Below, in pieces: positions 8,477-64,000 of a stretch of DNA of 64,000 nucleotides. This DNA comes from Euglena gracilis (taxonomy: Eukaryota), in NCBI GenBank assembly GCA_039621445.1, contig CP154954.1, forward strand, positions 30,260,395 through 30,324,394, in the 5' to 3' direction. Each line of letters opens with the position of its first letter. Positions within the stretch are counted from its first letter, which is position 1. Both the position numbers and the translations under genes were made by a program. The notes beneath the pieces are model-generated. The model was not told the origin of the DNA, searched no databases, and saw only the letters and a list, made by a program, of their open reading frames with translations.

Positions 8477-8575
8477 TTATTATTACTATTTAGAAAATTA
8501 TTATTACTATTACTATTACTATTATTATTATTACTATTACTATTTATTTATTATTTATTACTATTATTATTACTT
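8477..8575. repeat. (ATT/ACT)n microsatellite
   Basis: Direct inspection. Confidence 0.9.
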
Positions 8576-41907: not shown

Positions 41908-44590
41908 CAGACCTGGCCTGGGGGGGGGGGGGGGGTAGTGGGCCGACCCTAGGGTCGGCCCAATACGACCCTAGGGTCGCTAGGGTCGCTAAAGTCGTTA
42001 AGGTCGACCCCCCCCCCAGGCTGTGGAGTGGGCCGACCCTAGGGTCGCCCGTCCTAGGGTCGTGGGCCGACCCTAGGGTCGACCCTAGGGTCGGCCCACC
42101 CCACGACCTCGCCCCCCCCCCAAAAAAAATGTGGAGAATTTTTTTTACCCATTTGAACAGGAATTCAAGTTGGACTTGAGGTTGGACTTGAGGTCGTTTT
42201 GGGGGGCAAGTCCCTTGTGTTTTGAAATTGTTTTGGGGGTAAATCCCTTGTGTTGTCCAACTGATCGAGGGCCCGAAAATAATAAAATCCCTTGTGTCTC
42301 CAAGTCGTTTTGGGGGGCAAATCCCTTGTGTTGTTCAACCGATCGAGGGCCCCAAAATAATAAAATCCCTTGTGTCTCCAAGTCGTTTTGGGGGGCAAAT
42401 CCCTTGTGGTTCCAAATCGTTTTGGGGGTAAATCCGTTGTGTTGTTCAATTGATCGAGGGCCCCAAAATAATAAAATCCCTTGTATCTCCAAGTCGTTTT
42501 GGGGCAAATCCCTTGTGTCTCCAAGTCGTTTTGGGGGGCAAATCCCTTGTGTTGTTCAACCGATCGAGGGCCCCAAAATAATAAAATCCCTTGTGTCTCC
42601 AAGTCGTTTTGGGGGGCAAATCCCTTGTGGTTCCAAATCGTTTTGGGGGGTAAATCCGTTGTGTTGTTCAATTGATCGAGGGCCCCAAAATAATAAAATC
42701 CCTTGTATCTCCAAGTCGTTTTGGGGGGCAAGTCCCTTGTGTTTCCAAGTTGTTTTGGGGGGTAAATGCGTTGTGTTGTTCAATTGATCGAGGGCCCCAA
42801 AATAATAAAATCCCTTGTGTCTCCGAGTCGTTTTGGGGGCAAATCCCTTGTGGTTCCAAATCGTTTTGGGGGTAAATCCGTTGTGTTGTTCAACCGATCG
42901 AGGGCCCCAAAATAATAAATCCCTTGTGTCTCCAAGTCGTTTTGGGGGGCAAATCCCTTGTGTTTCCAAGTCGTTTTGGGGGGGCAAATCCCTTGTGTTG
43001 TTCAACCGATCGAGGGCCCCAAAATAATAAAATCCCTTGTGTCTCCGAGTCGTTTTGGGGGGCAAATCCCTTGTGTTTTGAAATTGTTTTGGGGGCAAAT
43101 CCCTTGTGTTGTCCAACTGATCGAGGGCCCCAAAATAATAAAATCCCTTGTGTTTCCAAGTCGTTTTGGGGGGCAAATCCCTTGTGTTGCCAAGTCGTTT
43201 TGGGGGGGAAATCCCTTGTGTTGTCCAACCGATCGAGGGCCCCAAAATAATAAAAATCCCTTGTGTCTCCAAGTCGTTTTGGGGGGCAAATCCCTTGTGT
43301 TGCCAAGTCGTTTTGGGCGGCAAATCCCTTGTGTTGTTCAACCGATCGAGGGCCCCAAAATAATAAAATCCCTTGTGTCTCCAAGTCGTTTTGGGGGGCA
43401 AATCCCTTGTGTTTCCAAGTCGTTTTGGGGGGCAAATCCCTTGTGTCTCCAAGTCGTTTTGGGGGGGAAATCCCTTGTGTTGTCCAACCGATCAAGGGCC
43501 CCAAAATAATAAAAATCCCTTGTGTCTCCAAGTCGTTTTGGGGGGGCAAATCCCTTGTGTTGCCAAGTCGTTTTGGGCGGCAAATCCCTTGTGTTGTTCA
43601 ACCGATCGAGGGCCCCAAAATAATAAAATCCCTTGTGTCTCCAAGTCGTTTTGGGGGGCAAATCCCTTGTGGTTCCAAATCGTTTTGGGGGTAAATCCGT
43701 TGTGTTGTTCAATTGATCGAGGGCCCCAAAATAATAAAATCCCTTGTGTCTCCAAGTCGTTTTGGGGGGCAAGTCCCTTGTGTTTCCAAGTTGTTTTGGG
43801 GGGTAAATCCCTTGTGTTGTCCAACTAATCGAGGGCCCAAAATAAAAAAAACCCCTTGTGTCTCCAAGTCGTTTTGGGGGGCAAGTCCCTTGTGTTGTTC
43901 AACCGATCGAGGGCCCCAAAATAATAAAATCCCTTGTGTCTCCAAGTCGTTTTGGGGGGGAAATCCCTTGTGTCTCCAAGTCGTTTTGGGGGGCAAATCC
44001 CTTGTGTTGTTCAACCGATCGAGGGCCCCAAAATAATAAAATCCCTTGTGTCTCCAAGTCGTTTGGGGGGGCAAATCCCTTGTGGTTCCAAATCGTTTTG
44101 GGGGTAAATCCGTTGTGTTGTTCAATTGATCGAGGGCCCATAAATAACAAAATCCCTTGTGTCTCCAAGTCGTTTTGGGGGGCAAGTCCGTTGTGTTTTC
44201 AAATCATTTTGGGGGGGCAAATCCCTTGTGTTGCTCAACCGTTCAAGGGCCCCAAAATCACCAAATCCCTTATGTCACGTAGTGATTTTGGGGTGTATTT
44301 TAGCATCAGTAATCAATATTAATTTTTCTTAGTTTTGTTTTCTTTGTATTTGAAGGCCTAAAACATCAAAAAAAAATTCGAAATTTTTTTGATAGGGGGG
44401 GCGAGGTCGTGGGGTGGGCCGACCCTAGGGTCGACCCTAGGGTCGGCCCACGACCCTAGGATGGGCGACCCTAGGGTCGGCCCACTGCGACCCTAGCGAC
44501 CTTAGCGACTTTAGCGACTTTAGCGACCCTAGGGTCGTATTGGGCCGACCCTAGGGTCGGCCCACTACCCCCCCCCCCAGGCCAGATCTA
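41908..44590. mobile_element. foldback-like element with about 200-bp inverted arms made of GACCCTAGGGTC palindromes
   Basis: 41908-42130 is the reverse complement of about 44386-44590; 11-bp direct repeat GTCAGCCATGG at 41893-41903 and 44597-44607. Confidence 0.75.
42193..44270. repeat. compound minisatellite of about 34-bp and 44-bp monomers sharing the prefix AAATCCCTTGTGT
   Basis: A: aaatcccttgtgtctccaagtcgttttggggggc; B: aaatcccttgtgttgttcaaccgatcgagggccccaaaataata; interspersed as AB and AAB units. Confidence 0.95.
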
Positions 44591-45125
44591 CCCCCCGTCA
44601 GCCATGGTGTCTCTTACTTGTGACCAGGGGAGTAGGATTCAATGCGGGGTCTCTGGAAACCCTAATGTCCTCATCATCATTGGATGAATACCCACACCTC
44701 ATCACCCAAAGCTTTTTTTTGAATATGGACAAAATGCCTCCAAAAGTGTAAAAAAAGGTGGGAAAATGGAAAAAATGCGCAAAAAAATTCTTTCAAAAAG
44801 GGGCAGAACAGAGCACAAATCAAACAACATAACTCAGCGTCAATGCAACATTGGTCAAGGAGCAATTTAATAATATACAATCAAAATCAAAAACACCAAA
44901 ATGAAACTGCAACATGTAAAAAAAGCCAGAAATTCTTAAGATGCAAAAAAATGCGCGAAAAAATCGAAAAAAAATGCGCAAAAAATGCGAAAAAATGTGC
45001 ATTTTCCCAAAAATCCGGAAAATGCGCAAAAATGCGAAACGCATTTCCCCCCCCTGCCAGTGCAGCGGATCGTTTTGGACCGGGGAAACGCTGGCAGTGG
45101 GACGGGGGCGAGATGGGGTAGGGAC

Positions 45126-45234
45126 GCGGTGCGGCGTAGACCAGGCTGTGCAGGGCGGGGCTGCCGAACAGCTCCAGCCCCTCGTCCTCGCTGCGCAGGT
45201 GGGGCAGGCTCCCCCGGCGGCGGGCAAAGCGGTC
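45126..45234 (-). CDS. isolated exon, 3' boundary uncertain
   Basis: gccccctcgcag|GAC acceptor; reads DRFARRRGSLPHLRSEDEGLELFGSPALHSLVYAAP with very high GC3. Linkage to the SIN1-like gene is not demonstrated. Confidence 0.5.
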
Positions 45235-45990
45235 CTGCGAGGGGGCGGGCAAACAGGGCAGTCCAGAAATGAAGCAAAAAAGACCAGGGTGAGCTCCGGG
45301 CGCTGGAAATTCTTTGGGAATGCACCAAGACGTCCCAATATTGGGGGGGGGGGGCACAGGCAATTTGAAAATTATTGGCCTTTTCCTTGCACAATAATCC
45401 GGGAAAAAAACTGATTTTCTAGGCTTTGCCATGGCAGCTGGATTGGGGATCTGAATTGGTTTGAGTTGAATTGGTTTGAGGGACACCTGTGGAGGTCATC
45501 TAGCACCTATGGTCATCCAGAGTCCCAGGCCCAATCGTGCCCAGTCACCCCCAGCACGCCAACAGAGATCCCAACCATCCCAACTTTGAGGGAGGTTGTT
45601 TGGTTGGCCATTTGTTGTTTGGCCACATTCTGGCGTTCTTTGCCCACTTTTTGCCCACTTTTAGCCCACTTTGGGCTGCTTCAACTTCTGGCTGTCACGA
45701 CACCCTAACCCTAACGCTGGCCGCTTTTTTGCTGGGGGTCCACGACTAAAAAAAACCCCTGGTTCGGATACTTTTTGCTGGTTTTGACAATTCTTGGCCA
45801 ATTTCGCCAACGTTTGGTTGTTTGCTTTTGACTGCTTTTAGCAGCTTTCTGAAGCCTTTTGAGGACACTCTTGCCAACTCTTTTTTGCTCAGTGGCCAAC
45901 AATGGCCCCAAAGTGGCCAAAAGAAGCTAAAAAATGGCCTGAAAATCGCCCAGTCACAGAATGCAACATACGGGGGCCGTCAGTCAAAGC

Positions 45991-46438
45991 CAGGCTTTTG
46001 CTTAAGGGCCCCGGGGGGGGGGGGGTGCTGGCTAGCCAATCGGCTAGACACTGGAAAAAGTGGACTAGCTAGACCCCCCCTCCCCCCACTAGGGGGGGGG
46101 GGGTCCGGGGGTCCCCTGGACTGGGAATTTTTTTTTCCTCCAGCGCACAGCGCCGGAGGAAAAATGAGGTTTTTAACAGGTTTTTGGCTGATTTTGTTCC
46201 AAAAATTCCCCAAAATGGCCAAAATGGGCATTTTTGGCCATTTTTGGGGGGTCCCAAAAAAAATTTTGGCGCTTCGCGCCGGTCACTGGAAAATTTTTTT
46301 CCACTAGCTAGCCCTGCTAGCAGACCCCCTCCGGGGGGGGGTCTGCTAGAAAACCCACTAGCCAAATTTGGACTAGCTGCAGTCCAGCCCCCCCCGGGGG
46401 GGGGGGGGGGGTACTGCAATCCCTTAAGCAAAAGCCTG
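45991..46438. mobile_element. hAT-like MITE (TIR CAGGCTTTTGCTTAAGGG), 8-bp TSD
   Basis: Perfect 18-bp TIR; TSD GTCAAAGC at 45983-45990 and 46439-46446. Confidence 0.9.
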
Positions 46439-48814
46439 GTCAAAGCCACTCCTGCCCAGTCATTTCATAGGTGCTTGGAGGTCATCCAATCGAGCCGATG
46501 GGTGTCATTGCAAAAGCTCCGGATCAAAATCAACATTTTTAATCCTCCCCTCCAAGCTGCCTCCTGTCAGAATTTCACAATACCCAACTTTCTTGACCTA
46601 CTGCAAGAATTTTACCAAAATTACCAAAACACTGAAAACCTTGAATCAACTCATCCAGGGTTTTTTTTTTAAAACCGGGTGGGAGGGGTTGGCACCCACC
46701 CACCCCCAGAGGTGAGCCCCCCCTGGGGGGGGGCCCACCCACTTTTGCCCGAAAATAGCCAAAAAATGCCAAAAATAGCACCTTTTCAAAAATTTTCGGC
46801 GCCAAAAAAGATGTACCCACCAGCCCGTACCCCAACCCCCCGGGGGGGATCCAAGGGACAAGCCAAGGCTCTACGGGGAAGGCAGGTGGGGGAAGTCGAA
46901 TCCCCCCCCCAGGCAAAGCCGGGTTGCTGGGTCGAGCCCTCCCAACCATACAATTGCTTACCGACCCCCCCCGGGGGGGGGGGGAGGGGGGGTCACTCCA
47001 CTTTTTTAAAAACCAGTCAGTCACTCATTTTCAAAAAACCAGCCAGTCGGCCACTCAGAAAAACGGCCACTTTCCAGTCACTTTAGGCCCAAAATTTTTT
47101 TCCGGCGCCTTCGGTCACTCAAGCCACTTTTGCCCACTCCTGGCCGACCCCCCCCCCGGGGGGGGGGGGAGGGGTCCGGGCCAAAAACCAGTCAGTCACT
47201 CTGAAAAAACCAGTCACCCACCCCCGCGGGGGGGGGGGGGGTCGGTCAGTGCTTAAGCAATTGCCTGCACCCAACCCACCACAGCACCAAACAAACGAAT
47301 CATTATCCAAAACAGTGTTCCAATCTAGCGGGCTTGCCATTCAGGAGCTGGGGCCGTGGCTGCAGCATCGCCCAGCATCGGAACCCCACCTCTGGTCTCC
47401 AAAAATCCAGCATCGCCCAGCATCATCAGAGGTGCTTGCTGATGCTGAACATGATACCCACTGGAGGGGAAAATCCCCCGTCCACAGAGCACATGCATTT
47501 GGCTCTCAGCAAAACCATTTGCACGAAAACATTTTGTGGGCTTTCTTTCCTTTCCTTTTGGTGCAACGCACGGCAATCTGGAACTGATTTCCTGGGCTTT
47601 GCCATTGTGCCGAAATTGGGGATCTGAATTGGTCTGAGGGTCACCTGTGGAGGTCATCCAATCGAGCCGATGGGTGTCATTGCAAAAGCTCCGGATCAAA
47701 ATCAACATAATCAATCCTCTCTTCCAAGCTGATTCATTTCACAATCCCCATGAGCTGGATCAACTAACTCATCCTTGCCTGGATGAGCCAGGGCTGGTAC
47801 GGGGAAGGCGGGTGGGGGAAATTGAGCCCTCTCCAGGCAAAGCCACCCAACCCACCACAGCACCACACACAAACGAATCATTATCCAAAACAGCATTCCC
47901 GCCAGTCCAGCGTGCTTGCCATTCAGGAGGAGGGGCCGTGGCTGCCGGTGGAGGTCATCCAATCGAGCCTATGGGTGTCATTGCAGAGCTCCGGGCCAAA
48001 CAGCAAAGCTAATCCTCCCTCCCACCACACTGGCAGCCGTGGATGGCCGCCCCACCCGTTTTCTGTGGCCCTGGAGGGACGGATGCTGATCAGCCAGGGG
48101 AATCATTGTGCCATCACAGTGTGAACTCTGGTGTTGAGAAATATGATGTGCATCATGCAAACTTTTGCGCCTTGTCGGCTGTCAGTCCACCCAATGCCAA
48201 TTCAGGGTAACTGCATGTGAACAAACATCTGGGGCAAGACAATTGCGTTCTTGAAGGGACAATCCATCTCAAGCCATTGGGGCCATCAGACTCCAGACTC
48301 CGTACATGAATCACAATTCATTTCGGTGGTGTGCAACGGTGGTGGTCATCACAAGGCACAGCGGCCACACATCTGGGGATGAATCCACCTGAACAAGTGG
48401 GGGATGTCCAGCCTTGTGGGGGGGGGGGGGGCTGTGAAATGGTCGCCTCCGGGGGGGTTTGGCGTGGCGAGGGGGGCCCGGATGGGGGGGGAGGGGTGCG
48501 CGGGGGTTTTCCAAGAAAATTTTCTTTGGCGCGGCTGACATGGCGTGGCAAGGGGGTCGGGAAGGGGGTGGGAGGGGGTAAAATGGCATGGCGAGGGGGT
48601 CGGTGAGGGGGGGGGAGGGGTGTGCCGACCCCCCCCCAGGACAGCTCAAAACCCCAGAACACACCCAAACCAAAAACCCAGAGCACACCAAAAAACCTCT
48701 TCATTGGAAATACGTGGACGAACTTCACCGGTGAACTTCACCGGTGAACTTCACCAGGGAAGTTTCTCCATGAAATTCCTTTAGGGGCAGAGCCCCCAAC
48801 CCCTGCCAAACCTC

Positions 48815-49569
48815 CTTTGTGCAGCTTGAATCAATGTGCAATCTTCCAGCCATTGCGGCAATGGAGCAACGGGTCCCAAAAGTGTCACAGCTTCTTGGAA
48901 GCAAGCAAGAGCATCCACTGGGGCGCGTTGGAAGGCTGATGGGATGCCCAAAGTATCAGGACCCCTCCTGATGTGAACAATTCCGGCAATGCGGGCTGGT
49001 ACTCTAACAGAGCTGGGATCTGAAATACCCAAGCCAACCAGGCGGATGGGAAGGGTGATTTGTTCCCACCGTTGTGGAGTACAGGGTGCTCCCAATAGAC
49101 CCTCGAAGCAATTGCGCAGGGTGGTGCAAGTGCTGAAGGCTGCGCATTCGGGACGACCCATCGACAATGAGGAGGCAGGAATTCGCAGGAGAACAGGCAA
49201 CGCCGAGTATCTTGCTCCATAGCTGGCGTTTTTTTTTGTTTTTTTTATTAAAAAAAAACGGGCAAAAAAAACGGCAAAAAAAACAAAGGGGAAAATGATG
49301 GTCCAAATTTTGCCTTTGATCGCAAGGGTGAACCAATCTTGAGAGAGGACAGCCTTCAGGAAGGCCCAAAGGGAGTGTAAGGTCAGCCATCTTGGATTTG
49401 CATTAAAGTTCCGTAATAATGTCACAAAAGTGCAAGTGACCTGGACAACTGACCCACGAGGAATGTGCACCAAGGTGGGCCCCAAACCAATTTCTTCAAA
49501 AGAAGGCGACAATGCTGCCCCGCCATCTGGGAATGCCCCCGGGGAAACAGAGCAAGACATAGCTGGCAC
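48815..49569 (-). mobile_element. decayed CRE-like non-LTR fragments
   Basis: TLVHIPR..LWAFLKAVL and WEQITLPIRLVGLGI..PLPQWLED (LPxxxGGLG post-RT motif). Confidence 0.7.
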
Positions 49570-49757
49570 TTCGTTTAAACGAAGTCAAAAAAAAACACGT
49601 TTTTTGGCCGTGCCAACCCCCCCTTCAAAAATCGGCCAAAAACCGGCGCCGAAAGCGCCGGGAAAAAAGTTTTAAGGCCTTTTTTTGGGTCTAAAAGGCC
49701 ATTTTTGGTGTCAAATTTTCATCTGTCTGGGGGGGGGGGGGTCCCGAAAATCCCAAC

Positions 49758-51015
49758 TGAAACCGTGTTCAATCCACGATGTACAGCGTCGTGGAAAACC
49801 GTGTTCAGTTCACGTGTACAGCAAAAAAACGTGTTCTGAACACGTTTTTTGACGCCGTACACCTGGACGAACACGGTTTTCTGTGCAAAAAAAAAGTGTT
49901 CTGAATACGGTTTTCGACACCGTACACGCGTTCAGAACACGGTTTTCTGTGAGAAAACCGTGTTCTGAACACGTTTTCTGGCACCGTACACGTGGACGAA
50001 CACGGTTTTCTGCCAGGAAACCGTGTTCACTGTGAAATGTGAAAAAATGTGTGATTACTGAGACCGTGAGAGGGATGATCGCAAACAAGGAGAATGGGCT
50101 CCCTTCCATCCGGCAGCTTTCTCGTCCAAAGCCTTCGCTGCCAGAGGGGCAAAGAAGGCTGGGGAGGAGGCCACAATTGGTGGGCCGTTGCGATCTGACA
50201 CCCTGTATTCAAACACAAGGGAATTCAGGTACGCACGAAAGGACGAAATTGGCATGGAACGAACACGAATATTGGTGCCAGCCCTCTCTGTACGTACAGC
50301 AACGCATGCCAACTGCTGCTGAGGAGTTGAGTACAACTCCCGAGCATCAATACACCAGCGTGCCCACCCCAAAAAAACATACGTCCTGGCGTACTGTGTA
50401 CTGGTGTACGTGGCGTGCTGCACCCCATGGGCTGCGCATACCCCCATGTACTCTGTGAAACAATTTAGGGCAGCCATTCGTTCCCGACGGTAATCTTTTA
50501 CTGAGGTATTTCACCAAGCAAAGCGTCAACTTCCTCAGCTGGAGAGTTCACCTTTTGGAGGGCATCCACAAACTCCTTTACCGAGGGAGGGGAGGGCATC
50601 TGGCACTCAGCGAGGTTAGCCAGGCGCAACATGGCTGAGAACGAAGAAAGCAGGAGAGGAAAAGGGGGGAAATCCAAAAGTGAACACGTTTTTTGACGCC
50701 GTACACGTGGACGAACACGGTTTTCTGTGAGAAAACCGTGTTCTGAACACATTTTTTGACACCGTACACGTGTTCAGAACACGGTTTTCCGTGAGAAAAC
50801 CGTGTTCTGAACACGTTTTCTGACACCGTACACGTGGACGAACACGGTTTTCTGCCAGAAAACCGTGATCTGAAAACGTTTTTTGTCAAAAAGCGTGTTG
50901 CCCCATTTTCGTACATGTGTTCACTATAATCGCATTTTTTTTTGCGCGAATCACGTGGACTTGAACACGGTTTTCCACATGACGCTGTACATCGTGGACT
51001 ACGAACACGGTTTCA
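49758..51015. mobile_element. TIR element with many GAAAACCGTGTTC / GAACACGGTTTTC subterminal repeats
   Basis: Inverted ends of about 55 bp (tgaaaccgtgttc...ccacgatgtacagcgtc); about 650-bp unique core with decayed coding-like sequence. Confidence 0.7.
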
Positions 51016-51289
51016 ATTTTGTTTCGTGATCTGATTCCGCTTTTTCACAAAAAAACGGGGGCGCCTTCAGCGCCCCCGGTTTTTTGGTGAAAAAGCGGGA
51101 TCAGATCACGAAACACTTTACAGTACAGGGGGGGAGGGGGGGGTCCCCCAAAAACCCCAACTGTACTGCCGTCTCCCCATTGGGCGCACGTAGATCGGAA
51201 GGTTGCAGAGCGTGCCTGTACGTACCTCCAACATCCCAGTAAAAATCCGCATTGCCAGAGCCACCTCCACCACCTGCGCGCACTCGTCT

Positions 51290-51610
51290 TGTAGCCTGAA
51301 ATGAAGAAAGTGTCGACAAGGAGCGCCTTCTCAACCGGGTCGAAACTCTTGTCGGACACAGTGCCATCTCCGAGGCATGTCGTGCCACATGGAAAACTGT
51401 GCTGATGGCGCGACCACTTCGCCCATCAGCACTACTCTCCGGGGATGTGCAACCAAATCCAGGCCCGGCAACAAGCAGCAATGCCGTTCCACAAGCAGCA
51501 CCCCTCCACCGCGCCTGCCCTTTCTTCCTCAGTTGCACATTTCAAACCTTTGATGAAGCAGCCATGCAACATCATGTTGATCGGATTCACGTATCCAGAG
51601 CGCAAATTCC
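51290..51610 (+). mobile_element. non-LTR retroelement fragment with 2A-like peptide and C2H2 zinc finger
   Basis: LLSGDVQPNPGP (51432-51467), then CPFFLSCTFQTFDEAAMQHHVDRIH. Confidence 0.6.
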
Positions 51611-51629
51611 GAAGAGACTTTGGCCGATT

Positions 51630-52034
51630 GCCATCCTGCCATGTGGCCAGCAGCAGGTCGGCGGGCCGTAGAGAGGTATTTGGCTGATTGGGTACCGGAA
51701 CCTCACGCTGGACACTTTGGCTGTTTGTGGACAAGAGGTTGAATGAAGCGTCCTGGACGGCGTTGTGTTTGTTGGCAAAATTATTCCGGATGCAGCACAT
51801 CTCGTGGTCACCGTGGACGTCAGTGACGCTCTGGCATCCTGCGCACGTGCCGCTTAAGTCTGCCAGAGGCAGCCCCAACCACCATTTCAGCCCGATGCGG
51901 TAGTCTTCAGCATCAATCGTCGTGTGGAGGGCCTCGTGGGGTGCCACTGCCATCCATCCATGACCGACACCATGGGCCTGTTCCATCAGGCGGGCCTGGT
52001 CTCTCGGCAAGGTTCGGTTTAGCAGGCCGTCCAC
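51630..52034 (-). mobile_element. CRE-clade (RLE) non-LTR retrotransposon C-terminal fragment
   Basis: WMAVAP..LKWWLGLPL..CAGC..DVHGDHEMCC..KHNAVQD..REV..LRPADLLL: CCHC knuckle plus PD-(D/E)xK endonuclease pattern. Confidence 0.85.
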
Positions 52035-54270
52035 CGTGGCACGTGATATCTAGGTCTGCCACCACTGCTGTGACGTGTGGTATCAAGAGGCGGAAGCGAA
52101 GGAAGCAGGTGTGAGCAATCGTTGGCTCTCGGGGTGTTGAGTCCAAGTGCGGACACCCCACCACCCAACTACGCGAATATGCTGAAATCTTGGCGCGATG
52201 CATTGCATTTTCCTAACTCTCTTCATCAGACCAGACCAGACGCGCGCCGCCAAAACATTATATATTCGGCAGCACTTCGTTCCCCTGCGTCATATGTTCA
52301 ACGTGAGCCGTTCGTTCCCCTTTCGCTATCTTGCTGACTACCAACAGCACAGGGGGGCAGGAAATTTTCCCTTGTGGCGGCCAACAAAGATGTCCAGCAG
52401 GATGCAACAATTGTGTATTTCAGCTGTGAGCCTCGTGGGAGCCAGCCAGCACCTTTTTCCAAGGCAGAATGCTGGTCGAAATCCCCAGAACACCTTCAAA
52501 AACACCATTTTCAGCGATCCGCATCAAAAAATTTTCGGTTAAGCCTGGCTTCACCAGGATGGCCCCAACTTTGGTGCTGTTTTTAAGATGTCAGGCTAAA
52601 GTGGGCCTAAATTTCGGCCTACTTCTAACCCAACTCCTTCAACAACCCTAAACTTTCCACTTAGAAAAACAGTACCCTCAGTCTGAATAAAACTTTCTTT
52701 GGCTTTTTTTTGCCCCTTCGAGGCAGGCATCATACCACTGTGCCAAAAAATACCTTTGAACTGTCATGAGCCCGATCTCCGAGGACTTCAACTTCGATGT
52801 CGCAGTCTTTTCGATGGCAGAGTCCTTTGTGTGGAAGTATTTCGAGAAAGATCATACTGGGCGTGTATTTTTTGAGGTTGCTTTTTGTGTGTGTGTTTTT
52901 TTTGAATTTATAACAATCTTTTTTTCAAAAAAAAAAGTCCACGAGGGTTTGGAGGGAAGGAAGAATTACTGACCGCCCATGTTGGTCAATCACCTCTTGG
53001 GCAACAGGCCAAAACAAAGAGAATCCTCTGGCCCAGGGAATGAGTGTGCCATCTTTTGTGTCTAGTGCCTTTGTTTGCAACCTGACCTTGAAAAATTTTA
53101 TGTTACACCTAACACCTGAGATTTTAACACTTCACACCTCTAATTTTGTACTTTCGGTCAATTTTTTTTGCACTTTATCTCAAGAATGTTTGCACATGCC
53201 AACAATTTGTCTGCACTTTATCTCAAAAATGTTTGCACTGAATCCCAAAAATATTTGCGTCCGTTCCGAAAATTTTTGCGCTCGGATCGGGTGTTTTGCA
53301 CAGTTGTCCTTTGAAACTCCAATCGAAATGGATCTTTTTCCATAAAATGACGGAGGGCAAATTTTTCCGAAACAAGTGCAAACATTTTTGGGATGCAGTG
53401 CAAAAATTTTTGAGGCCTTTGGGCAATTTTTTTAGGGCGCTGGGCAAAATTTTGACAGGTCGTGGGCAAACATTTCAGACGCTAGGTGTAGTGATATTTG
53501 TTTGAAGCCCCCCCCCCCCCCGAATGTTCTGTGTGTTCGTTCGAAGGTCCGCAATGGAATATTCGAGGCAGCCTCACCACTGGACCCCTCCTTTTTCCTT
53601 ACCCTCACCCCCCCCCCCATTTGGCTGATGGCCGGGCTCCCCTTTGGACCCACCTAACCAATTGGGGGGGGGGCATTTTGGCTCGTGCAAGCAACGACAT
53701 TGGGGGGCGCTTGGGAGCTTGGAAAATGGAAAAGGTGCTGGCTGGACCGGGGGGGGGGGGTAGGGGTGTGGTACTGGTGGCTGGCCCAAGTGATATGCAA
53801 AACCTGGCAGCCCATGTTTTGACGAGGCACATTTTTTGTTGGCCAAAAAAATACAGACAAATTTGAATGATGTCAAAGAAAACGTGTGCCCCCCCCCCCG
53901 CTTCCTGAACCACCCCCATGGTCAAATGTCATTTTTGCATGGTTGGCCCCCATGTATGGTTGGCCAACACCCCCTCCCAAATTGATGGACCTTCCCTACA
54001 ACATTGTAATTGAAAGTACCCCCAGGTTCCTTTTTAAGGCTCCAGGTCGCCCCACCCAAAGTCGGGACGCATTAGGGTATTTCAAAAAAAAATTCTTCAC
54101 AGCTTCGCCCCAAAATTGAAACCGCCTCATATTACCCTCACCCCCTGGGCGATTCCCTTATTCTGGTTCTCATCGTGTTTCACCGCAGTTACAGGTATCT
54201 GGGCTCCTCCAAGTGGTATTTAAAACAGTTATTTCTTTGTTTGGCGTAGAATGGCAGGACTCTCACAATA

Positions 54271-54284
54271 ATTTTGTTTTTCAG
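54271..54284 (+). promoter_or_regulatory. polypyrimidine tract and AG splice acceptor 8 nt before the UGDH ATG (SL trans-splice or 5'UTR cis acceptor)
   Basis: attttgtttttcag|ggcacaaaATG. Confidence 0.55.
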
Positions 54285-54292
54285 GGCACAAA

Positions 54293-54379
54293 ATGGCTGA
54301 CTTCAAAGTGAAGATTTTGTGCATTGGCGCTGGGTACGTTGGTGGTCCAACGATGGCAGTCATCGCTTTCAAATGTCCC
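54293..54379 (+). CDS. UGDH: UDP-glucose 6-dehydrogenase, coding exon 1
   Basis: Reads MADFKVKILCIGAGYVGGPTMAVIAFKCP, with the NAD-binding GAGYVG motif and GPT..VIA.KCP typical of eukaryotic UGDH. Confidence 0.95.
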
Positions 54380-57300
54380 TGACAGGGTTTCACATCCCAG
54401 CAAAGACAGGAGGAGACCGTGACTTGGGGGTTGGGTGAAGAAACCCCTGGTTTTGGTCTCGAGATGGGACCACTGCAAGTTCAGCCTCCCCGGATGGCCT
54501 GGCGAAGCTGGATTGAATATTTTTTGAAAAAAAGAGTGAGAATGGCATGGCAATTTGAGGGATTTCGGTTTTAAGCTTTCAGTTCCAAATTTTTGGCGGA
54601 AAAATTCCAACCCACTGGATTCGGGCCCCGGGCGGATATTGGCCATGCTTGCTCTGGAGGTTGGGCCGACCTAGGTCGGCACGGCCCAACCATGCTGTTA
54701 TCGACCTCTGGAGGTCGACAGAAATGGCCACTGCACCGCATTACCTCCCCCCCTTTTCAAAGAACTGGTCGGCCCGACCTGTTGCAGTTGCCGACCATAT
54801 GGTCGGCCTGACCAATTGGAGGTCGGGCCGACCATATGGTCGGTAGAAATGACCTCAATGGTTTTCCTTTTCAAAAGCATCCATCCAAACCCTTGGCCAA
54901 ACCCCGGAACATAAGAAGGCCATTTTCGCATATACCCTCACCCCCCCTAATTGCCCCCCCCCCCCCAATTGGCTAATTGAGGGTCCCGTTGGACGGTCCA
55001 TTAGCCAATTTGGGGGGGGGGTCGGGCTTATTGCCCATTGGCCGGGGTTATCCCCCCCTAATTGTCCCCCCCCTAATTGGCTACCACACCCCCCCTTATT
55101 TGCCCCCCCCCCCTTAATTGAGCATTTGGGTCCGGGGAGGAAATTTTTTTAGGCGCCGAAGGCGCCGAAAAAAATTTTTGCCCTCTCGCAAAGCCAAATT
55201 TTCGACCCCCCCCCTTATTTGAGCATTTGGGGGGTCCCTTAGCCCGTGGGTGTGCTCAAATAAGGGGGGGGTAATTGGGGGTCCGAAGGAGCCCGGCCAT
55301 TAGCCAAATAGGGGGGGTGAGGGTACCCATAAGCTAGGGGGCATTGCAAAACAATTCCTGGTGGCGTTAACCCGTGGCCAAAAAGAATTTCTGACGTTAT
55401 TTGAAGGGTTATATGAGTTGGGTTAGGGTTATGATTCTTATGCAAACAGCAGAACATTTCCTGCTCAACGTTGTTAGATTGGTCTCTACAAGGTTCCCAG
55501 CAATCCCAAAGAGCCGCCCAACTTGGGTTAAAAACATGGGGGGACCTGAGCGAGGCGCCAGCAAGGGTCCCCCCATGTGCATTAACCCCAGTTGGGCGGC
55601 TCTTTGGGGTAGCTGGTACCGTGTAGGAGCCAATTTATCCCGTTTCTGAACAGCCGGCTGCAGCCCTCAAAAAATTTTCAGGCTTCAAAAAGAGGCACTT
55701 GCCAATGGAGCCCTGGATTCGGGCTTTCTTGCCTGTTTTCGAGGTGCCAGCCCGGTTCAGCTGCCAGTAGACCCCTTTTCCAGCCAGCACCTTTTTTCCC
55801 CTAGCGGTAACCCCCCCAGGGTCTTTAAGGAAACCCCTGGACTGAACCATTATTTCCAGAGTGGAAGTGTTGATTTTTGAGTCATTTTGGTCCCGGTGGC
55901 CAGAGACCGACCCTGGAGGGGTTGGGGAGTTGGGTGATTGGTTTTCCAGATCCCCCCCCCCCGGGGGGTGTTGCTGAGCAACGGTATAATTCTGATTAAG
56001 GATGTCAAGAATAAAACAACCTGTTTTTGAAACCGTGTTTGGGCCGATTTCGAGACTTTAAAAGTCTTAAATCTTCGCCCAAAACACGGTTTCAAACAAG
56101 AACAGTGTTTTGGGCCAAGGTTTTAGGAGGGCCCAGGGGCGACCACGGCGCCTTCGGCGCCGCGGTCCCCGCCCCTGGGCTCCCCCTAACTCTTGGCCCA
56201 AACACAGTTCTTGCCACAGTACCCGCCCCCCCCCCCCTTGTCCCCTTGTCCACCGACCACCCCTACATACCGACCACCCCCCGGTCGGGGGTTGCAGGTT
56301 GGGGGGGGGTGTACGACCACCCCCCGGTCGGGGGTTGCAGGTGACCACCAAAATGTTTTTACCTCTCATGTGCTTGTCGACCAGCTTTTTTCCCGTGTTT
56401 CCTGTCCATTGAGTGTTCCTCGTGTTCCCTCCGGGGAGTCCTGTTTTGTTTGAGCATAGCACCTCTGTTGTTGCTATGGTTATTGGTCCCTTACCTCATG
56501 GGGAGAAATATTACCGTTATGAAATTGCACCTTTTTTTGGCTTTTGGTTTTGTTTTGGCCCTAGTGGTACGACCACCCCCGGTCGGGGGTTGCAGGTTGG
56601 GGGGGGGTGTACGACCACCCCCCGGTCGGGGGTCGTAGGAACCCGGCCGTTGGACAAGGGGGGGGGGGGCGGGTACAACAAGGCAATGGTTTTGCCAAAT
56701 AAAAGTTTCATGCATGCTTTTTTGTTGGTTTTGGGGGGTTAAACATGTTTCTCAGTCTGAAGTGTTTGTTTTGAACAACATCTTTGGCCCTGACCCCCAA
56801 GGGTGCATGGAGAGAGCCAGGGTGGTCTATACGGGACGGGATTTTTCTTTTTTTTTCCTGTTCAGGACGGCCCTGAAGCCCTCAGGCCTAAGAGTCTGTC
56901 TGCCAAGGGCAGAACTGGGGGGCGTGAACCGGGTCGGGAGGAGCCCAGGTAACCGCGGTGTAACCGCAGTGAGAGCAAGAGCAAAGGTATCAGTATCAGT
57001 CCAATGCTTCATGACAAGGGGGTTGGAGGGGGGGGAAGCCCCCCCCCCCAAATGAGACCTGGGATTTTTTGGGTCCGTTACTTGAAAACTGCAGGGGTTC
57101 TTATTTTTGGGGGATCTTATTTTTGGATTTTTTTTGACCAACCTGGACCCAAAGACATCATTTTCCAGGTTCCCAAAAAAACCAAAAGTTTTCCTTCGGC
57201 GCTTCGCGATACGCGTAAATTGGTTCAATTCATCTTTTAGCCTGTTTTTGGAACTCAAATATCCCAAATTGTTGACAGGTGGAATCCAAACCAAGATCAT

Positions 57301-57649
57301 CGTGTGAATTGAAAGAGAATTTTGACCTCCATTACCTTGCGGTTACACCGCGGTGTGACCGCGGTGCAACCGCGGTGATAACCGCGGTGTGGGCTCCTCC
57401 TCAAAAACAAAAAGGTCGAAACATGCATTTTCGACCTTTTGGGTGGATGGGCGATAGTCCAAGGATGCCGGAAATCACATTTTCTGCCGAATTCGAGCCG
57501 CTTTTGCCAAAATTTGGCTCTTTTTTGCCCATTCTTCCTCTGGGGTTTCATTGAATGTGCTGGGACAGCAGATTTATTTTATTCTTTTTATCTTCCCCCT
57601 GGGGAGAGCACAGGAGGTAACAGTTCGTCTCATCGGAAGCCCTGTGACA
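54380..57649 (+). other. non-conventional intron (UGDH intron 1)
   Basis: tgaCAGGGTTTC...GAAGCCCTGtgaca|G, with CAG at +4..+6 and CTG at -8..-6 and a terminal helix of about 10 bp. Joins CCC|GAT (KCP-DVKV). Confidence 0.9.
54935..55323. mobile_element. MITE CCCTCACCCCCCCTA...TAGGGGGGGTGAGGG with TA TSD
   Basis: TIRs flanked by TA; partial copies near 53600 and 54133. Confidence 0.7.
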
Positions 57650-57837
57650 GATGTCAAGGTTACCATCCATGATATCAATCAGGCGCGGATTGATGCCTGG
57701 AACTCAGACCAACTTCCAATCTATGAACCGGGACTGGAGGAGATTGTAAAGCAGCAGCGTGGCAAGAACCTTTTCTTCACCACCAGCTTCGATGAGGAAC
57801 TCCAAGAAGCGGACATTGTGTTTATGTCTGTGAACAC
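57650..57837 (+). CDS. UGDH: UDP-glucose 6-dehydrogenase, exon 2
   Basis: Reads DVKVTIHDINQARIDAWNSDQLPIYEPGLEEIVKQQRGKNLFFTTSFDEELQEADIVFMSVN(T). Confidence 0.95.
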
Positions 57838-59042
57838 ATTCAGGGAGTGGCATTAAAGGGAGAAGAATGCTGGAATGATTGTGAAAGAAGTGTGACTAAC
57901 CCCCCCCCCCGATGGTGGAGGGTGGTGTGGGCTTTTTGGGAATCCCCCCACAAGTCACACGGAGAGTCGGCAGGGGGGTTTGGGGTGGTGTACATGCCAC
58001 TGGGACGGTGTTGCCAACAGGTAAATGCCGCTGTGTAAACCCTGTCAGGTGCATGTGCATGATGGTGTGTGTGTGTGGCAAACCCCGAACTGCCCCAAGA
58101 GAACGCTGGAACAAAGAACAACTGAACAGTGTTTCTTCCAGTCTGGCCGAATACAGACAAGCTGTGGGCAACCACATTTTGGTGAAAAGACTCCGATGGG
58201 TGGTGGTGGTATTGCAATTTTCTCTCTCGGTAGGGTCAAGGGTAAGCTTCTATAAAGGCCCCAAAAATTAAAAAGAAATTGCAAAAAAAAATTGTAAAGA
58301 AAATGGTGGCCTGGATGAGATGATGATTCAAAAAAGAACCTGGATTCTGGGATGGAAAGCTGCAAAATATTATGGTGTGGGACAGTGGGATCTGCCTACA
58401 AGCCTCAGGTAACCAAAAGTCAGGATTACATTTTCTGGGACCCAAGAAATCACATACCCCCTTCCCCCCTTGTCCAAGACACAGCGTGTCGTTGACACCC
58501 CCCTGTCAATGACTCTTTTCTGGAGCACATTTTTTCTCTTGTATTTTTTTTTAAGGATATTCAGCCAAGTCATTTGAAAATTGTGTCACATCTGCTTGCC
58601 ATTTCTTTATTTGTTTTTCCCTATGAATTTGGTGATTTGGTGCAATATGAGGGGTCAAATGGTGCAATTTGTGGAGGACATGGTCATTGGGCCATCAAAA
58701 AGTTCGTTGTCATTGTCCGTGCTGTTGACAGAGCTTGTCGTTGACATCCCCCCATGTCAACAGCAACAGCAACAGCTTTCCTGGTGCGTGCCTTGGCCAA
58801 GGGGAGGGGAGGTGGGTACCTTGTGAAAATGGCTGAAGGCCATGCCGCAGGCAACAGCCCTTCATTGAAGAGAGCACCATCAGAGACCATGGCAGATTAA
58901 CGGTCCCCCACTAGGGGGCGCCAATTTTTGCAATGGGTCGAAAATTAAGCAGTCAAAAAACGCATTTTCTCAGACCACAATTTTAGAGAAAGTTGGTCGA
59001 TTTTGGGGAGCAATTTCAGGCATACTTGGACCATTGCCCATC

Positions 59043-59963
59043 CAAGGCTGGTAATTTTTTGATTGATCTTGCATTTGGGGGGGGTGCGATATTTTGCGAG
59101 ATATTGCACCGTCTTGCGATATTGGCGATATTTCCGATATTTGCGATGTTATTGCTGATATTGCAATATATTGCGGTTATTTTTTAAGCTCCCCCCCCCC
59201 CGGAAAAATGTTAGTCACAACCTTGGCCAGCGGAATTCAGCCTTTCGCCATTCACCCTAATACAGAACCCTCCAAAACAGTAAGTGCCCTCGGTTACTGG
59301 AATTTCCAGTGCCTCATTGATGACACCCCAAGATTCCTCTACAATGGGATCCACCACAATGTCATCTTCATTGTCAGAGTCAACTAAAATCTGACCTTCA
59401 AACAGCTGCCCTGATTTTTGGAACGCTGACGTTGTCACAGGCACGGTTGACAGTGAAAAAAGAACGGAGCAAAATTTGTCAAATGCCCTGCGGGGAGGTC
59501 TGAGGGCAACCGCGCGGGCGGTGTTCGGCCCAAAGGGTGTGTTGGGGTTGCGGGGGGGGGGGTCGGGGGAGGAACGGGGTTTGCGTCATGCGTGACTTGT
59601 GTGACGTCATTCTTTCCTCTAATTTTAGAACCCAATCAGGAATTTGCGTGCCATTTGGGTCCAAAAATAGGTCCAATTAGGAATTTGGGACAAATTATTC
59701 ATACTTTTGATTCCTAACTGAGTGGCAAATTCCTAGTTAATCCGAATTTTTTGTACTTTTCTTTGAATCCAGAATCGGGTTCAGAGAGGGGTCGGGGGGG
59801 GGGGCGGGGGGGGGGCGCGGAGGAAACGCCCAAAATGGGGATTTTCAGGAGAAGGGCAAAAAAAGAGGGGGTGCGATATTTTTGCGAGATATTGCACCCC
59901 TTGGCGATATTTTCGATATTTGCGATATTTGCGATACTGTGCGATATCCAATTACCAGCCTTG
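59043..59963. mobile_element. TIR element CAAGGCTGGTAATT...AATTACCAGCCTTG, apparent 7-bp TSD
   Basis: 14-bp perfect TIR; flanks GCCCATC / CCCCATC; subterminal GCGATAT repeats at both ends. Confidence 0.8.
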
Positions 59964-60044
59964 CCCCATCCACCCATCCAGGTGCGCCGACCCCGCCCCC
60001 GACATTTTGAGGAGAGGGTGAGGAGGAGATACATGGGTGCAACC

Positions 60045-60577
60045 CAGGGTTCAATATAAGGAGGGCGTATATGGTTTAGGTGGGGGTTGTGTCCCCCTCC
60101 ACCCCCCCCCCTCCTGGCCCGCGGGGGGGGGGGGTCCGGACCACCCCCCCCCCACCTGCAAGGGGGGTCCAGACCGACCCTCGGGGGGTACCCGGGACCA
60201 GGGTTCGATATAAGGAGGGCGTACATGGTTTTGGTGGGGGGGTGCCCCCCCCCCCCCCCCCCCTCCTGGCCCGCAGGGGGGGGTCCGGACCCCCCCCCCC
60301 CCACCTGTCCTTATATCGAACCCTGCCCGGGACCCCCCCCCCAAAAAGGGTCAATTTTTTCCTCCGGCGCTTTGCATTTTTTTGCATTTTTGGCCAATTT
60401 TTGCCCAAAAAGTGCCCAAAATGGCACTTTTGGTCGTTTTGGGGGGTCAAAAATTTTTCGGTCACCCTGACCGCGCCACTGTTTAGGTGGGGGGGTGTCC
60501 CCTCCCCCACCCCCCCCCCTCCTGGCCTGCAGGGGGGGTCCGGACCACCCCCCCTCCTTTCCTTATATCGAACCCTG
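60045..60577. mobile_element. hAT-like MITE, family A, 8-bp TSD
   Basis: TSD GTGCAACC at 60037-60044 and 60578-60585; CAG...CTG termini. Confidence 0.9.
60199..60325. mobile_element. 127-bp family A MITE nested in another family A copy
   Basis: TIR cagggttcgatataagga / tccttatatcgaaccctg; TSD CCCGGGAC at 60191-60198 and 60326-60333. Confidence 0.9.
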
Positions 60578-60948
60578 GTGCAACCTCATGGAAACCTCTG
60601 GACTGATTATGCATATTATGCACTGAACAAACACTATGCACTGTTTTCTTCAAATTTAAGGTTTAATTTCTTTAAATTAAGGTTCACCTTTTTCATTTTA
60701 AACTGTAGCTTTGGTACAAATATTGAAATTTCATTTCACGCCGCTCATGGAGGTGGTCACCCCTGCATGTTCCTCCAACAACTGTGGGCAAACCAAATCC
60801 CAAAAAAGAAAATGAAAAAATGGCATATGAACCAGAGAACAGAAAAAGCACAAAAACCGAAAAAAAATCAAAAATCAAAATCAATATTCATGCATACAAT
60901 CTTGGGCATTGGTGAAATTTGTGCAGCAGAAAGTTGGTGGATTCCTGC

Positions 60949-61210
60949 CAGGCTTCTGTTTGTTTTGGAAAGTTGCACCCCCCGGGGGGTTGTGGGCCGG
61001 CAGGAGGGTAGGGCACCTTCAACCCCCCCCCCCCGTGAGCCGGTTTCGGGGTGGGTAGTGCTAAAATGGCCGTTTTCAAGGGGAATTTGCCTGTGTCAGC
61101 AGGCACCACGTGCCGAAACCGACCCCCCCCCTGGGGTGGGGGGGGTGCTGCCGTGGACAGCAGGCACCATAGCACAAGGCACCCCCCCGGGGTTGGTAAA
61201 AAGAAGCCTG
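60949..61210. mobile_element. hAT-like MITE (TIR CAGGCTTCT), 8-bp TSD
   Basis: TSD ATTCCTGC / ATCCCTGC (7/8) at 60941-60948 and 61211-61218. Confidence 0.8.
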
Positions 61211-61222
61211 ATCCCTGCTCAC

Positions 61223-61303
61223 ACCCACCAAGTTGCATGGGATTGGCAAAGGGCGAGCGGCAGATCTTAAGTACATTGAAGGTGCTGCCCGTCGTATTGC
61301 AAC
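61223..61303 (+). CDS. UGDH: UDP-glucose 6-dehydrogenase, exon 3
   Basis: Reads (T)[26 protein letters not shown], completing the SVNTPTK and GxAADL motifs. 3' boundary uncertain by a few nt. Confidence 0.9.
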
Positions 61304-63283
61304 GATCAAGGATGGTTCAGCCACACAGTGTGGCGACCTGGAATTGATCCTGGTCTGAAGTGGATCCATTTTTTAAACAAGCAAGTGACCAAATTTGCAC
61401 ACCCTCTTTGCATGAAACCCTGGGGGTCTACATTGTCCAAATATTTACTGGCCCCCAACGATTGTGTTGACCTTCCAGCTTTTCAAAAAACATGTTTTTT
61501 GAACCTTGAAAAAGAAAAGTGTAAAATGTCGTGTTTTTGAAAAAATTCTTTTTTCTTTTTTAAAAAAAACCGAAGTGTGGCACGCAGCTTCGCTTGTCCA
61601 ACCCCCCCCCCGGGATTTAAAAATTCTCCTTTTTTACCTCTGACCCCCCCCCCGGGAAACTGTTACCCACCTCCGTATTTGCTGACAGTTTCCCGGGGAG
61701 GGGTAGATGCCCAAGAGGTTATTATTTTTTATATTTTTTTCCTCCAGTGCTTTGCAGAGTGTATTTTAGAATTTTAGACATATTTTGCACAGCATTGCCC
61801 CAAGCCGCACGTTTGACCAATTGGGGCAGGGGATTCTTTCCCCTGGTGGTACGCTATATGCCTGACAAAATCGGTAACTCTTTTCAAGAGGGGAGGTAAG
61901 CTTGGAAGGACACCAGGGGTTTTTTTTAGTTGTGGACCCCCGGTGGGTCCGGCCGGGCCCCCCCCCCCCCCCAGGGGGTCCCCCCAGAGGGGGGGGGGAT
62001 ATACTTTTTGGCGCCAAAAATATTTGAAAAGGTGCTATTTTTAGCACTTTTCGCGATTTTTCGACCATTTTTTTTGTGGGTCCCCCAGGACCCCCCCAGG
62101 GGATGGGTGGGTGGGGGGACCCCCGTCCCCCCCCCCCCCCGGTCTTAAATAAATCAAGAGCGGGAGAGGGTTGGGTGGGTGGGGGCCATACCATTGCCAA
62201 GCACGTCGACCCCCCCCCCATTCCCTGCATGGTGGGTGGGGGGGTCGACCACCCCCCCCCACCCTCTGCATGGTGGGTGGGGGGGGGGTCGACCACCCCC
62301 CCCCCACCACCTCTTCCCGTGTTTCCGGGAGCACCAATTTTTGGACCCGAAAAAAATTTTCCGGCGCCGGGTGTTTTTTTGACCCGTTTTGGGACCCATA
62401 TAGGGGGTCCCCCCCAAAAAACACCCAAAAACCGCATTTTTTCACACCTTCCAAAAATTCAACATTTTCTCAAAATGTTGATTTTGAGAGGTTTTTGAAG
62501 CAAAAAAATGCCATTGAAAGTCCAAAAAATTTCAACGAGAAAAAATGGCAGTAAAATTTGACTGTGCCAAAATTTTGTCCACTTTTTTTGACCTTCGTTT
62601 TTTTCACCCCCCTCCTAAAAACTACCAATTTTTAACCCTGAAATTTTTGATATTTTTTTGTGAAAAAAATGTGGGTTTCCATCAAAAAATCATGTGTTTT
62701 GGGTTCATTTTTCAAAAAAAAATTCAAAAATCTTCCCGGCCAATATCCCCTTTTTCCTGAAATCGGTGAAAATGCTGTGGTGGGTGGGGGGGGTCGACCC
62801 CCCCCACCTCCCGGGTGGGGGGGTCGACCACCCCCCCCCCCCCACCAGGCCTTCCCGTTCTGCCCTGGGGGGGTTGTCAGGATTGGCCGACGTGGCCACC
62901 TGGCGCCAAAGGCGCCGGATTTTTTTTTTTTGACCAAAAATGTTTTGATTTTTGGCCAATTTTGGCCGAGTAGCCAAAGTGACCAACCCCCTCCCCCAGG
63001 AAGGAGGTGGGAAGTGGGTGACTGGTTTTTGAAAAGTGACTGATTGGTTTTTTGAAAGTGGAAAGTAAGTAAGGGGGTCGGTAAACAATGGTATGGTCCG
63101 GTCCCTTATGTGGGGGGGGGTGTCCCTGCGGAAGCTTGGGCATGGGTTCCGGAGAGAAGCACCAGAAAAAATTGGGCAAGGCGGTCCCCTGCTGGGCTGG
63201 GTGGGGGGTCTTTAAAAGAAGCCGGGGGAGCACAATTGGTCGGCAATCCATGGCCCCTCTGAAGATTAAATCCTCCTTGCAAG
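61304..63283 (+). other. non-conventional intron, CAAGG...CCTTG variant (UGDH intron 3)
   Basis: gatCAAGGA...TCCTTGcaag|G; 1980 nt, restores frame. Exact junction can slide because TTGCAA is repeated at both ends. Confidence 0.65.
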
Positions 63284-63380
63284 GACTGTGAAGTCTGGCA
63301 ACAAGGTGGTTGTGGAGAAGTCCACAGTGCCTGTTCGCTGCAGCGTTGCCATTGAGCGAGTCTTGAAGGCATGCAGTGCT
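63284..63380 (+). CDS. UGDH: UDP-glucose 6-dehydrogenase, exon 4; gene continues past the window
   Basis: Reads TVKSGNKVVVEKSTVPVRCSVAIERVLKACSA with the conserved EKSTVPV motif; followed by an N3-CAG donor (gatCAGGG). Confidence 0.9.
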
Positions 63381-63609
63381 GATCAGGGTTTGACGTAAGG
63401 AGGTCGACCGCGCACCGTTTCGAACAATTGCCTTTTGTAACGATCCCCCCACTTTGCACCTATTGCATGCAAGAAGCTCTGGGAGTGTGGAAGCTGAGTC
63501 ACATGAAAATGAAATGCGAGTGGATGGACCGCTTCTAAGCAGAGGAGGGCACCATAAGGAACCTCCATGACTTTTCTTTTGATGATTGCCTCAAAAAACC
63601 CCTATCTGC

Positions 63610-63700
63610 GACCCACATAGGTCACACATTGGACCCACATAGGACACACTCTGGACCCACATAGGACACACACCCATAGACCCACATAGGACACACTCTG
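63610..63700. repeat. about 22-bp tandem repeat GACCCACATAGGACACAC..
   Basis: Four to five imperfect copies. Confidence 0.8.
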
Positions 63701-64000
63701 GCAATGACCCTCTCTGATTCAACCCTGACGACCCACAACGACCCATTGCTGTAATCATTGGTTATACTCTGTTCACATGTTTTGGGCATTAAAAATGCTC
63801 TCCACTTTCCTTGATTACCCCTCTTTCGTGTCAAGTCCAACAAAAATCACAAATATTGAGAACCAAACCTGGATTTTGAAAGCAGGTTGGCAAATTTAGC
63901 AGCACATCACTCCAGAATTAGGAATATGAAAATTATGGCAAAGAAGCATCTGGAAATTTTCTGGGTGTTTTACCAAACCACCCAGAAAGTTTGTTTGTTA

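Follow-up and report, generated by a model that had tools for sequence, protein, structure and literature searches.

The window analysed here is a stretch of 64 kb from Euglena gracilis (contig CP154954.1 of assembly GCA_039621445.1), and all positions are counted from its first letter. Its last 10 kb hold the 5' part of the gene for UDP-glucose 6-dehydrogenase (UGDH) on the + strand. Conserved motifs of the enzyme lie in the open frames 54272-54382, 57458-57856, 61212-61358, and 63270-63398. A search with exon 2 retrieved the EukProt protein P0001 (EG_transcript_14324) at 100% identity, together with euglenid relatives including Eutreptiella (P0003), and P0001 is 100% identical to UGDH exons 2-4. 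The subject of this analysis is intron 3 of this gene, a nonconventional intron, and the possible origin of its unusual end geometry from a transposon.

RNA was placed on positions 44001-64000, from the contig runs X1, X2, and X6 (presumed RNA) and the raw RNA-seq run X21. Fifteen joints are listed and 388 further ones are not shown, so that a joint described as absent is absent among the joints listed. An initial annotation, made from the letters of the window, had predicted that intron 3 is removed by the frame-restoring joint of 61303 with 63284. This junction is used: one contig each of X1 and X6 contains it, so that two of the three contig runs show it, and it is spanned by 222 reads of X21 (110+112). 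No contig of X2 carries it, although the loose ends of X2 at 61305 and 63277 are compatible with it. P0001 reads AARRIATTVKSGNKVVVEKS across the junction, with the junction residues RRIATTVKSGNK, which is the predicted T form. The borders of intron 3 are therefore non GT-AG (GA..AG), and its removal from the mRNA is exact in both contigs, in the 222 reads, and in P0001. Junctions that had been named as contrary to the prediction, including 61314/63268, are absent from the fifteen joints listed and from P0001. Four aligned proteins (P0002, P0003, P0040, and P0042, only P0003 being named as euglenid) likewise have seven residues at the junction. With P0001 this holds for all five proteins, so excision of intron 3 restores the common length. 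An alternative junction, with a 1983-nt intron giving RRIATVKSGNK and hence six residues as in plant and animal UGDH enzymes, is ruled out by the RNA and by P0001.

Close to its two ends, intron 3 carries the complementary hexamers CAAGGA and TCCTTG, at the positions that the initial annotation had given, and their helix leaves 7 nt of the intron outside. In the register of Table 1 the ends read GAT-CAAGGA..TCCTTG-CAAG, followed by the exon base G, and 3+4 nt are unpaired. The junction slides by 2 nt, so only the sum of 7 is fixed, and the split may be 3+4, 2+5, or 1+6; the 3+4 split of the initial annotation is one of several. The helix-bounded core measures 1973 nt, which together with the 7 outer nucleotides gives 1980 nt, or 3 x 660. 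A cofold of the two ends (51+51 nt, without a shuffle control) formed the 6-bp helix and a second helix, 61343-52/63264-73, at -25.8 kcal/mol. Reading the intron as 61305-63284 is no less valid, and its ends then become ATC-AAG..CTT-GCAAGG, followed by A. The spacers are now 3 and 6 nt long, the helix opens with an A-U pair, and the spacers themselves form one more C-G pair. Exon 4 opens with a purine in these two registers (G63284 or A63285) and with C63286 in the third.

A useful standard of comparison is the code for euglenid nonconventional introns, 5'-N3CDG-/-CH'GN5-6 followed by R (Nomura et al. 2025, PMC12501133). As in the euglenid nonconventional introns described there and by Milanowski et al. 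(2014, 2016), the borders of intron 3 are non GT-AG, a helix joins its ends, and its removal is exact. It also shares a possible 3-nt 5' spacer, a downstream purine, and a gene that contains code-fitting introns. Unlike the code, its helix starts with CAA/TTG instead of CDG/CH'G: positions +4 to +6 are CAA (start 61304) or AAG (start 61305), and the 3' side is TTG plus 4 nt or CTT plus 6 nt, where the code has CH'G plus 5-6 nt. Its 3' spacer is 4 and not 5-6 nt, and the sum is 7 and not 8-9, whereas the canonical form N3-CAG..CTG-N5 gives 8. Intron 3 breaks the code at one point in either register, which is not rare among such introns, and would count as 'unclassified' in Dataset S8 of PMC12501133. 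Of all Euglena agilis introns, 28.9% are unclassified in this dataset, which has no CAA class.

In UGDH, introns 1 and 2 are both in accord with the published code and leave 3+5 = 8 nt unpaired beyond the helix. The RNA borders of intron 2, 57835-61219, are slidable by 4 and include a register that fits (Table 1). Intron 4 starts at 63383, directly after exon 4, and its remainder lies beyond the window; exon 4 ends at 63382, where a loose end in all four runs continues into the next exon, also beyond the window. The 5' arm of intron 4, CAGGGTTTGACGTAAGGAGGTCG (63384-63406), is identical at 19 of 23 positions to the terminal inverted repeat (TIR) of the CAGGGTTCGATATAAGGAGGG family of MITEs (miniature inverted-repeat transposable elements). 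This family makes 8-bp duplications and has copies at 19759, 60045, and 60199; when 224 CAGGG sites are ranked, the intron 4 arm falls among its true members. The link between intron 4 and the MITE family is much stronger than that between intron 3 and the CAAGG element, and it supports a general transposon model in UGDH.

Table 1. Positions of UGDH exons, introns, RNA joints, and transposon-like elements in the window.
Feature	Position	Strand	Basis and remarks
Intron 3, nonconventional, 1980 nt	61304..63283	+	RNA joint; equal borders 61305-63284 or 61306-63285
5' helix arm of intron 3, CAAGGA	61307..61312	+	sequence; RNA cofold pairs the arm with 63274-63279
3' helix arm of intron 3, TCCTTG	63274..63279	+	sequence, RNA cofold; with 63280-63285 makes the 12-nt palindrome TCCTTGCAAGGA
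Left 7-nt flank CAACGAT, candidate duplication copy 1	61300..61306	+	CAAC kept in mRNA, GAT is the 5' spacer
Right 7-nt flank CAAGGAC, candidate duplication copy 2	63280..63286	+	CAAG is the 3' spacer, GAC opens exon 4
Intron 3 joint	61303 to 63284		skips 1980, ends GA..AG, 2 slide letters; X1 and X6 contigs, 222 X21 reads
UGDH exon 3	61220..61303	+	joints on both sides and 100% match to P0001; 5' border slides by at most 4
UGDH exon 4 (TVKSGNKVVVEKSTVPVRCSVAIERVLKACSAD)	63284..63382	+	joint into 63284, P0001 match
Intron 1, canonical nonconventional	54380..57649	+	TGA-CAGGG..CCCTG-TGACA, then G (3+5)
Intron 1 joint	54379 to 57650		skips 3270, ends TG..CA, 0 slide letters; 516 X21 reads
Intron 2, register fitting the code (slid by 3)	57838..61222	+	ATT-CAGGGA..TCCCTG-CTCAC, then A (3+5)
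Intron 2 joint	57834 to 61220		skips 3385, ends CA..CT, 4 slide letters; X1 and X6 contigs, 210 reads
CAAGG-ended element, 921 bp, inside intron 2	59043..59963	.	TIR CAAGGCTGGTAATT, 14/14; 7-bp flanks GCCCATC/CCCCATC (6/7)
MITE, CAGGCTTTTGCTTAAGGG ends	45991..46438	.	8-bp duplication GTCAAAGC, 8/8
MITE, CAGGGTTCRATATAAGGA ends, 533 bp	60045..60577	.	8-bp duplication GTGCAACC, 8/8; contains 60199-60325
MITE, 127 bp, same family as 60045-60577, nested in it	60199..60325	.	8-bp duplication CCCGGGAC, 8/8
MITE, 262 bp, CAGGCTTCT ends	60949..61210	.	8-bp duplication ATTCCTGC/ATCCCTGC, 7/8
Nested repeat inside intron 3, G/C-rich inverted ends	62205..62858	.	blastn and repeat search

Two classes of transposon-like elements, distinguished by their end motifs, are found in the window. 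The CAG-ended MITEs have CAGG ends and occur in multiple copies (three of one family in the window); they are putatively hAT-like by end motif and duplication length. Their inverted-repeat ends are shaped like the ends of nonconventional introns. Four of the four informative cases carry 8-bp duplications (8/8, 8/8, 8/8, and 7/8), and a fifth MITE, 19759-20152, lies in poly-G, where the duplication length is uninformative. These calls rest on long perfect repeats, read by eye, and not on a generic screen. The 262-bp MITE lies within the arm that forms the 3' side of the intron 2 helix. The TCCCTG that now pairs with CAGGGA comes from its right duplication copy; since the duplication restored the arm, the insertion into it was tolerated.

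The second class comprises a single CAAGG-ended element in intron 2, with a duplication of 7 in place of 8. Its flanks, as already given in the initial annotation, match at 6 of 7 positions, which would occur by chance at about 0.001 in one register. It also has a subterminal 69-nt inverted repeat of 88%, and the difference between its repeat diagonal (928) and its TIR-bounded length (921) corresponds to the 7-bp duplication. An 8-bp duplication was rejected for this element, with only 3/8 in register. A 9-nt reading (7/9 on the same diagonal) needs AAGG..CCTT ends, and its offset still gives 7. The open reading frames (ORFs) of the element contained 0 Pfam families, and a metagenome scan with its 23-nt tip gave 0 matches.

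Intron 3 had been described as matching the TIR family of this element. The resemblance extends to the 5' tip, where CAAGGATGGT matches the tip of the element at 9 of 10 positions, as had been noted. At the 3' tips 7 of 10 positions agree, of which 2/5 lie beyond CCTTG. Alignment of the bodies by blastn gave a best match of 36 nt at 81% (E = 4e-4); the others were short, with E of at least 0.005, and mostly homopolymer. Anchored alignments of the ends reached z of at most 1.1, versus 3.5 for the two ends of the element itself. The match to the family was not borne out beyond the 5' tip, and the sequences suggest, at most, a weak link between intron 3 and the element.

The flanks of the intron 3 helix had been described as looking like a decayed 7-bp target duplication. 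CAACGAT and CAAGGAC match at 5 of 7 positions, and an extended comparison (61297-61306 with 63277-63286) at 8 of 10. The register of the 5/7 match is a single one, fixed by the RNA, for which the chance is about 0.01-0.03. The match is therefore of some value, but as a trace of a duplication it is weak, 28 of 887 control pairs reaching it. Duplication length is 7 (6/7) for the element and would be 7 (5/7) for intron 3, one case each. The proposal that the number of nucleotides outside the helix follows the duplication length of the parent transposon agrees with the content of the window. Two CAGGG introns have 3+5 = 8 and CAG MITEs have 8-bp duplications, and the CAAGG intron has 7 and the CAAGG element a 7-bp duplication. 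Helix end, outside length, and duplication length therefore agree in both end classes, which is what the internal test of the initial annotation calls for and partly supports the proposal, on very few cases.

Huff et al. are said to have described introners, or transposon-derived introns, in 2016. Intron 3 is a nonconventional, most likely hairpin-guided intron, and we consider it about an even call that its 7-nt geometry derives from a transposon with 7-bp target duplications. In the pre-mRNA, CAAGGA (61307-12) would pair with UCCUUG (63274-79), backed by the helix 61343-52/63264-73, and the euglenid machinery would cut so that 7 nt in all are removed beyond the helix. Most likely 3 of these lie 5' and 4 lie 3' of it, the latter ending before the purine G63284, and the exons would then be joined; the published code describes the 5' spacer of 3 nt as strict. 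A circular product may also form. As for its origin, the exon may have received an insertion of a transposon with inverted-repeat ends and 7-bp target duplications. Removal of the element and one duplication copy would give back the pre-insertion sequence, and the empty site would read ATTGCAACGACTGTG. Such an origin is the most likely reason why the shorter geometry still yields a correct mRNA.

Several observations weigh against this transposon origin. A census of the window gave 887 CAAGG..CCTTG pairs that are 40-8000 bp apart. Terminal repeats as good as those of intron 3 (at least 10/14) were found in 53 of them, and 7-nt flanks matching at 5 or more positions in 28. Both features are combined in 3 of the 887 pairs, including intron 3 and the 921-bp element; no further CAAGG element appeared among the pairs, except for a G-rich low-complexity pair (57015-58472). 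Neither blastn nor anchored alignment detected similarity between intron 3 and the element beyond the 10-nt tip, other than low-complexity matches, and no second copy of the intron 3 core or of the element was found in the window, nested repeats aside. The comparison of duplication length thus involves one CAAGG element and one CAAGG intron. Little remains of a duplication at the flanks of the code-fitting introns, with matches of 1/8 (intron 1) and 4/8 (intron 2). A generic screen for TIRs with duplications returned 10 of 789 candidates with a duplication, versus 6-11 in a shifted-flank control, and was not above the control. The helix is needed for splicing whatever its origin, so it is not independent evidence of a transposon. 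Short border repeats occur in 84% of Euglena agilis introns (PMC12501133), and a 2-nt slide is thus ordinary. In the knock-in experiments of the same article, a change of the 5' spacer by +1 or -1 was not tolerated, and a 3' spacer that was one base short gave about 20% transcript; the 4-nt spacer of intron 3 may reflect simple tolerance.

These points lead to a plainer account, in which intron 3 is an ordinary and possibly old nonconventional intron outside the code, like about 39% of such introns, with a tolerated 3' spacer and with flank and tip matches by chance. We regard this as a real possibility, somewhat short of probable. It accords with the share of E. agilis nonconventional introns that fit the code (61.2%), with the 28.9% of all introns left unclassified, and with the residual splicing of about 20% with a shortened spacer, all in PMC12501133. 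The null rates (repeat, 53/887; flanks, 28/887) point in the same direction, as do the unrelated bodies and 3' tips of intron 3 and the element. The length of intron 3 (1980 nt) and the many repeats nested in it also indicate that it is not young. Chance would have to account for a threefold coincidence, however, in that 7 equals the CAAGG duplication, the CAG MITEs all have 8, and both CAGGG introns have 8. It would also have to produce the 5/7 flank match where the RNA leaves a single register. Junction reads number 222 versus 210 for the canonical intron 2, unlike an intron of 20% efficiency, though counts from mature mRNA cannot measure efficiency.

The sliding junction allows another reading of the mechanism, compatible with either origin, in which the intron is 61305-63284 with the ends N3-AAG..CTT-N6 before A, and has no special 7-nt overhang. 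The same mRNA results from 61305/63284, a 3' spacer of N5-6 is permitted by the code, and A63285, with which exon 4 would open, is a purine. Also counted in its favor is that the 3+4 register has CA at +4,+5 and CT at -8,-7, as canonical introns do. Against it, splicing of the knock-ins of PMC12501133 was lost after single substitutions within CAG or CTG; the Results and Discussion of that article report no compensated changes at positions 1 and 3, and the helix of intron 3 clearly extends to C61307-G63279. We consider this register less likely than not, if still worth keeping in mind.

A stronger claim than a transposon origin would be that cut geometry falls into classes that mirror the duplication length of the seeding family (8 for CAG, 7 for CAAGG), with an excision machinery tied to or descended from transposon chemistry. 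This seems to us very unlikely. An exonic insertion survives only if the removed length equals the element plus one duplication, so that selection alone would give the same agreement. A specific form of such a scheme seems less likely still: a factor derived from a transposase would act on the RNA hairpin and excise the introns of each transposon family with the stagger (8 or 7) of that family's transposase. The agreement of outside length with duplication length in two end classes is all that speaks for it among our data, and Milanowski et al. posed 'transposition-related?' removal as a question (PMC3935182). No transposase gene was found in the ORFs of the element or in 150 of the 205 window ORFs, which had no Pfam match; fully synthetic 50-nt introns were spliced (PMC12501133), so no family-specific body is needed; and selection against frame-breaking insertions is a simpler account.

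A transposon origin of euglenid introns is already a published hypothesis, and it is the 7-base variant that is new. The MITE origin was proposed first in a tubulin-gene paper of 2013-14 (PMC3935182) and is also taken up in the Discussion of PMC12501133. Duplication-like repeats are frequent at the borders of nonconventional introns, according to a review (PMC11282704). Full-text literature searches, with subscription journals and the supplementary information of PMC12501133 outside their scope, found no published link of duplication length to the spacer sum and no CAAGG class. Intron 3 can also be compared with the introners of Micromonas, Aureococcus, and dinoflagellates, as covered in PMC11282704, in which the removed length is likewise an inverted-repeat element plus one target duplication. 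In introners, the spliceosome uses GT/AG from element and duplication, whereas in intron 3 an RNA hairpin and the euglenid machinery would set the cuts. Introner families have many near-identical copies, in contrast to the single copy of intron 3 in the window.

Should the outside length and the duplication length both change from 8 to 7 in step, this would provide a natural control that separates removal of an element plus one duplication from a machinery that always cuts 3+5. Intron 3 is in addition an exception to the published code that occurs naturally and is spliced well, which makes it readily usable in the existing knock-in assay. With one intron and one element, the present case is a lead and not a result.

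Further observations concern the introns themselves. About 600 bp within intron 3 (62239-62837) match the opposite strand at 8277-8949, 54 kb upstream, with 81-85% identity. This repeat is bounded by G/C-rich inverted repeats centred on GGTCGACC and resembles a further nested repeat family. The 3' flank of intron 3, CAAGGAC, repeats the CAAGGAT of the 5' arm at 6 of 7 positions, which may be chance. In intron 1, TGACAG forms the first six bases (54380-54385) and recurs across the 3' junction (57645-57650); the offsets differ, being 3 in intron 3 and 0 in intron 1.

Many of the RNA molecules start at 54277, and 180 and 181 of 181 reads differ from the DNA at 54282-54283. Positions 54277-54283 have the look of a site at which the spliced leader is added to the UGDH mRNA. 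Other RNA joints and loose ends lie at long poly-G/poly-C runs (46992, 59794-59815, 60244-60266, and 62119), among them skips of 12.8 kb and 1.85 kb and joints between opposite strands. They are artefacts of repeats or homopolymers and not splicing.

The window upstream of UGDH looks like repeat-rich, gene-poor DNA. A Pfam scan of 150 of the 205 ORFs of at least 105 aa, over positions 1-52539, gave 0 families. The ORFs left out were two at 19.9-20.4 kb, two at 34 kb, two at 37-38 kb, 15 in a tandem stretch at 42.1-44.3 kb, one at 44.9-45.3 kb, and 33 from 52.9 kb on. A tandem array at about 42100-44200 consists of units of about 80-110 bp, each ending in AATAAAATCCCTTG and then TGTCTCCAA, and contributes many CCTTG sites to the pair census.

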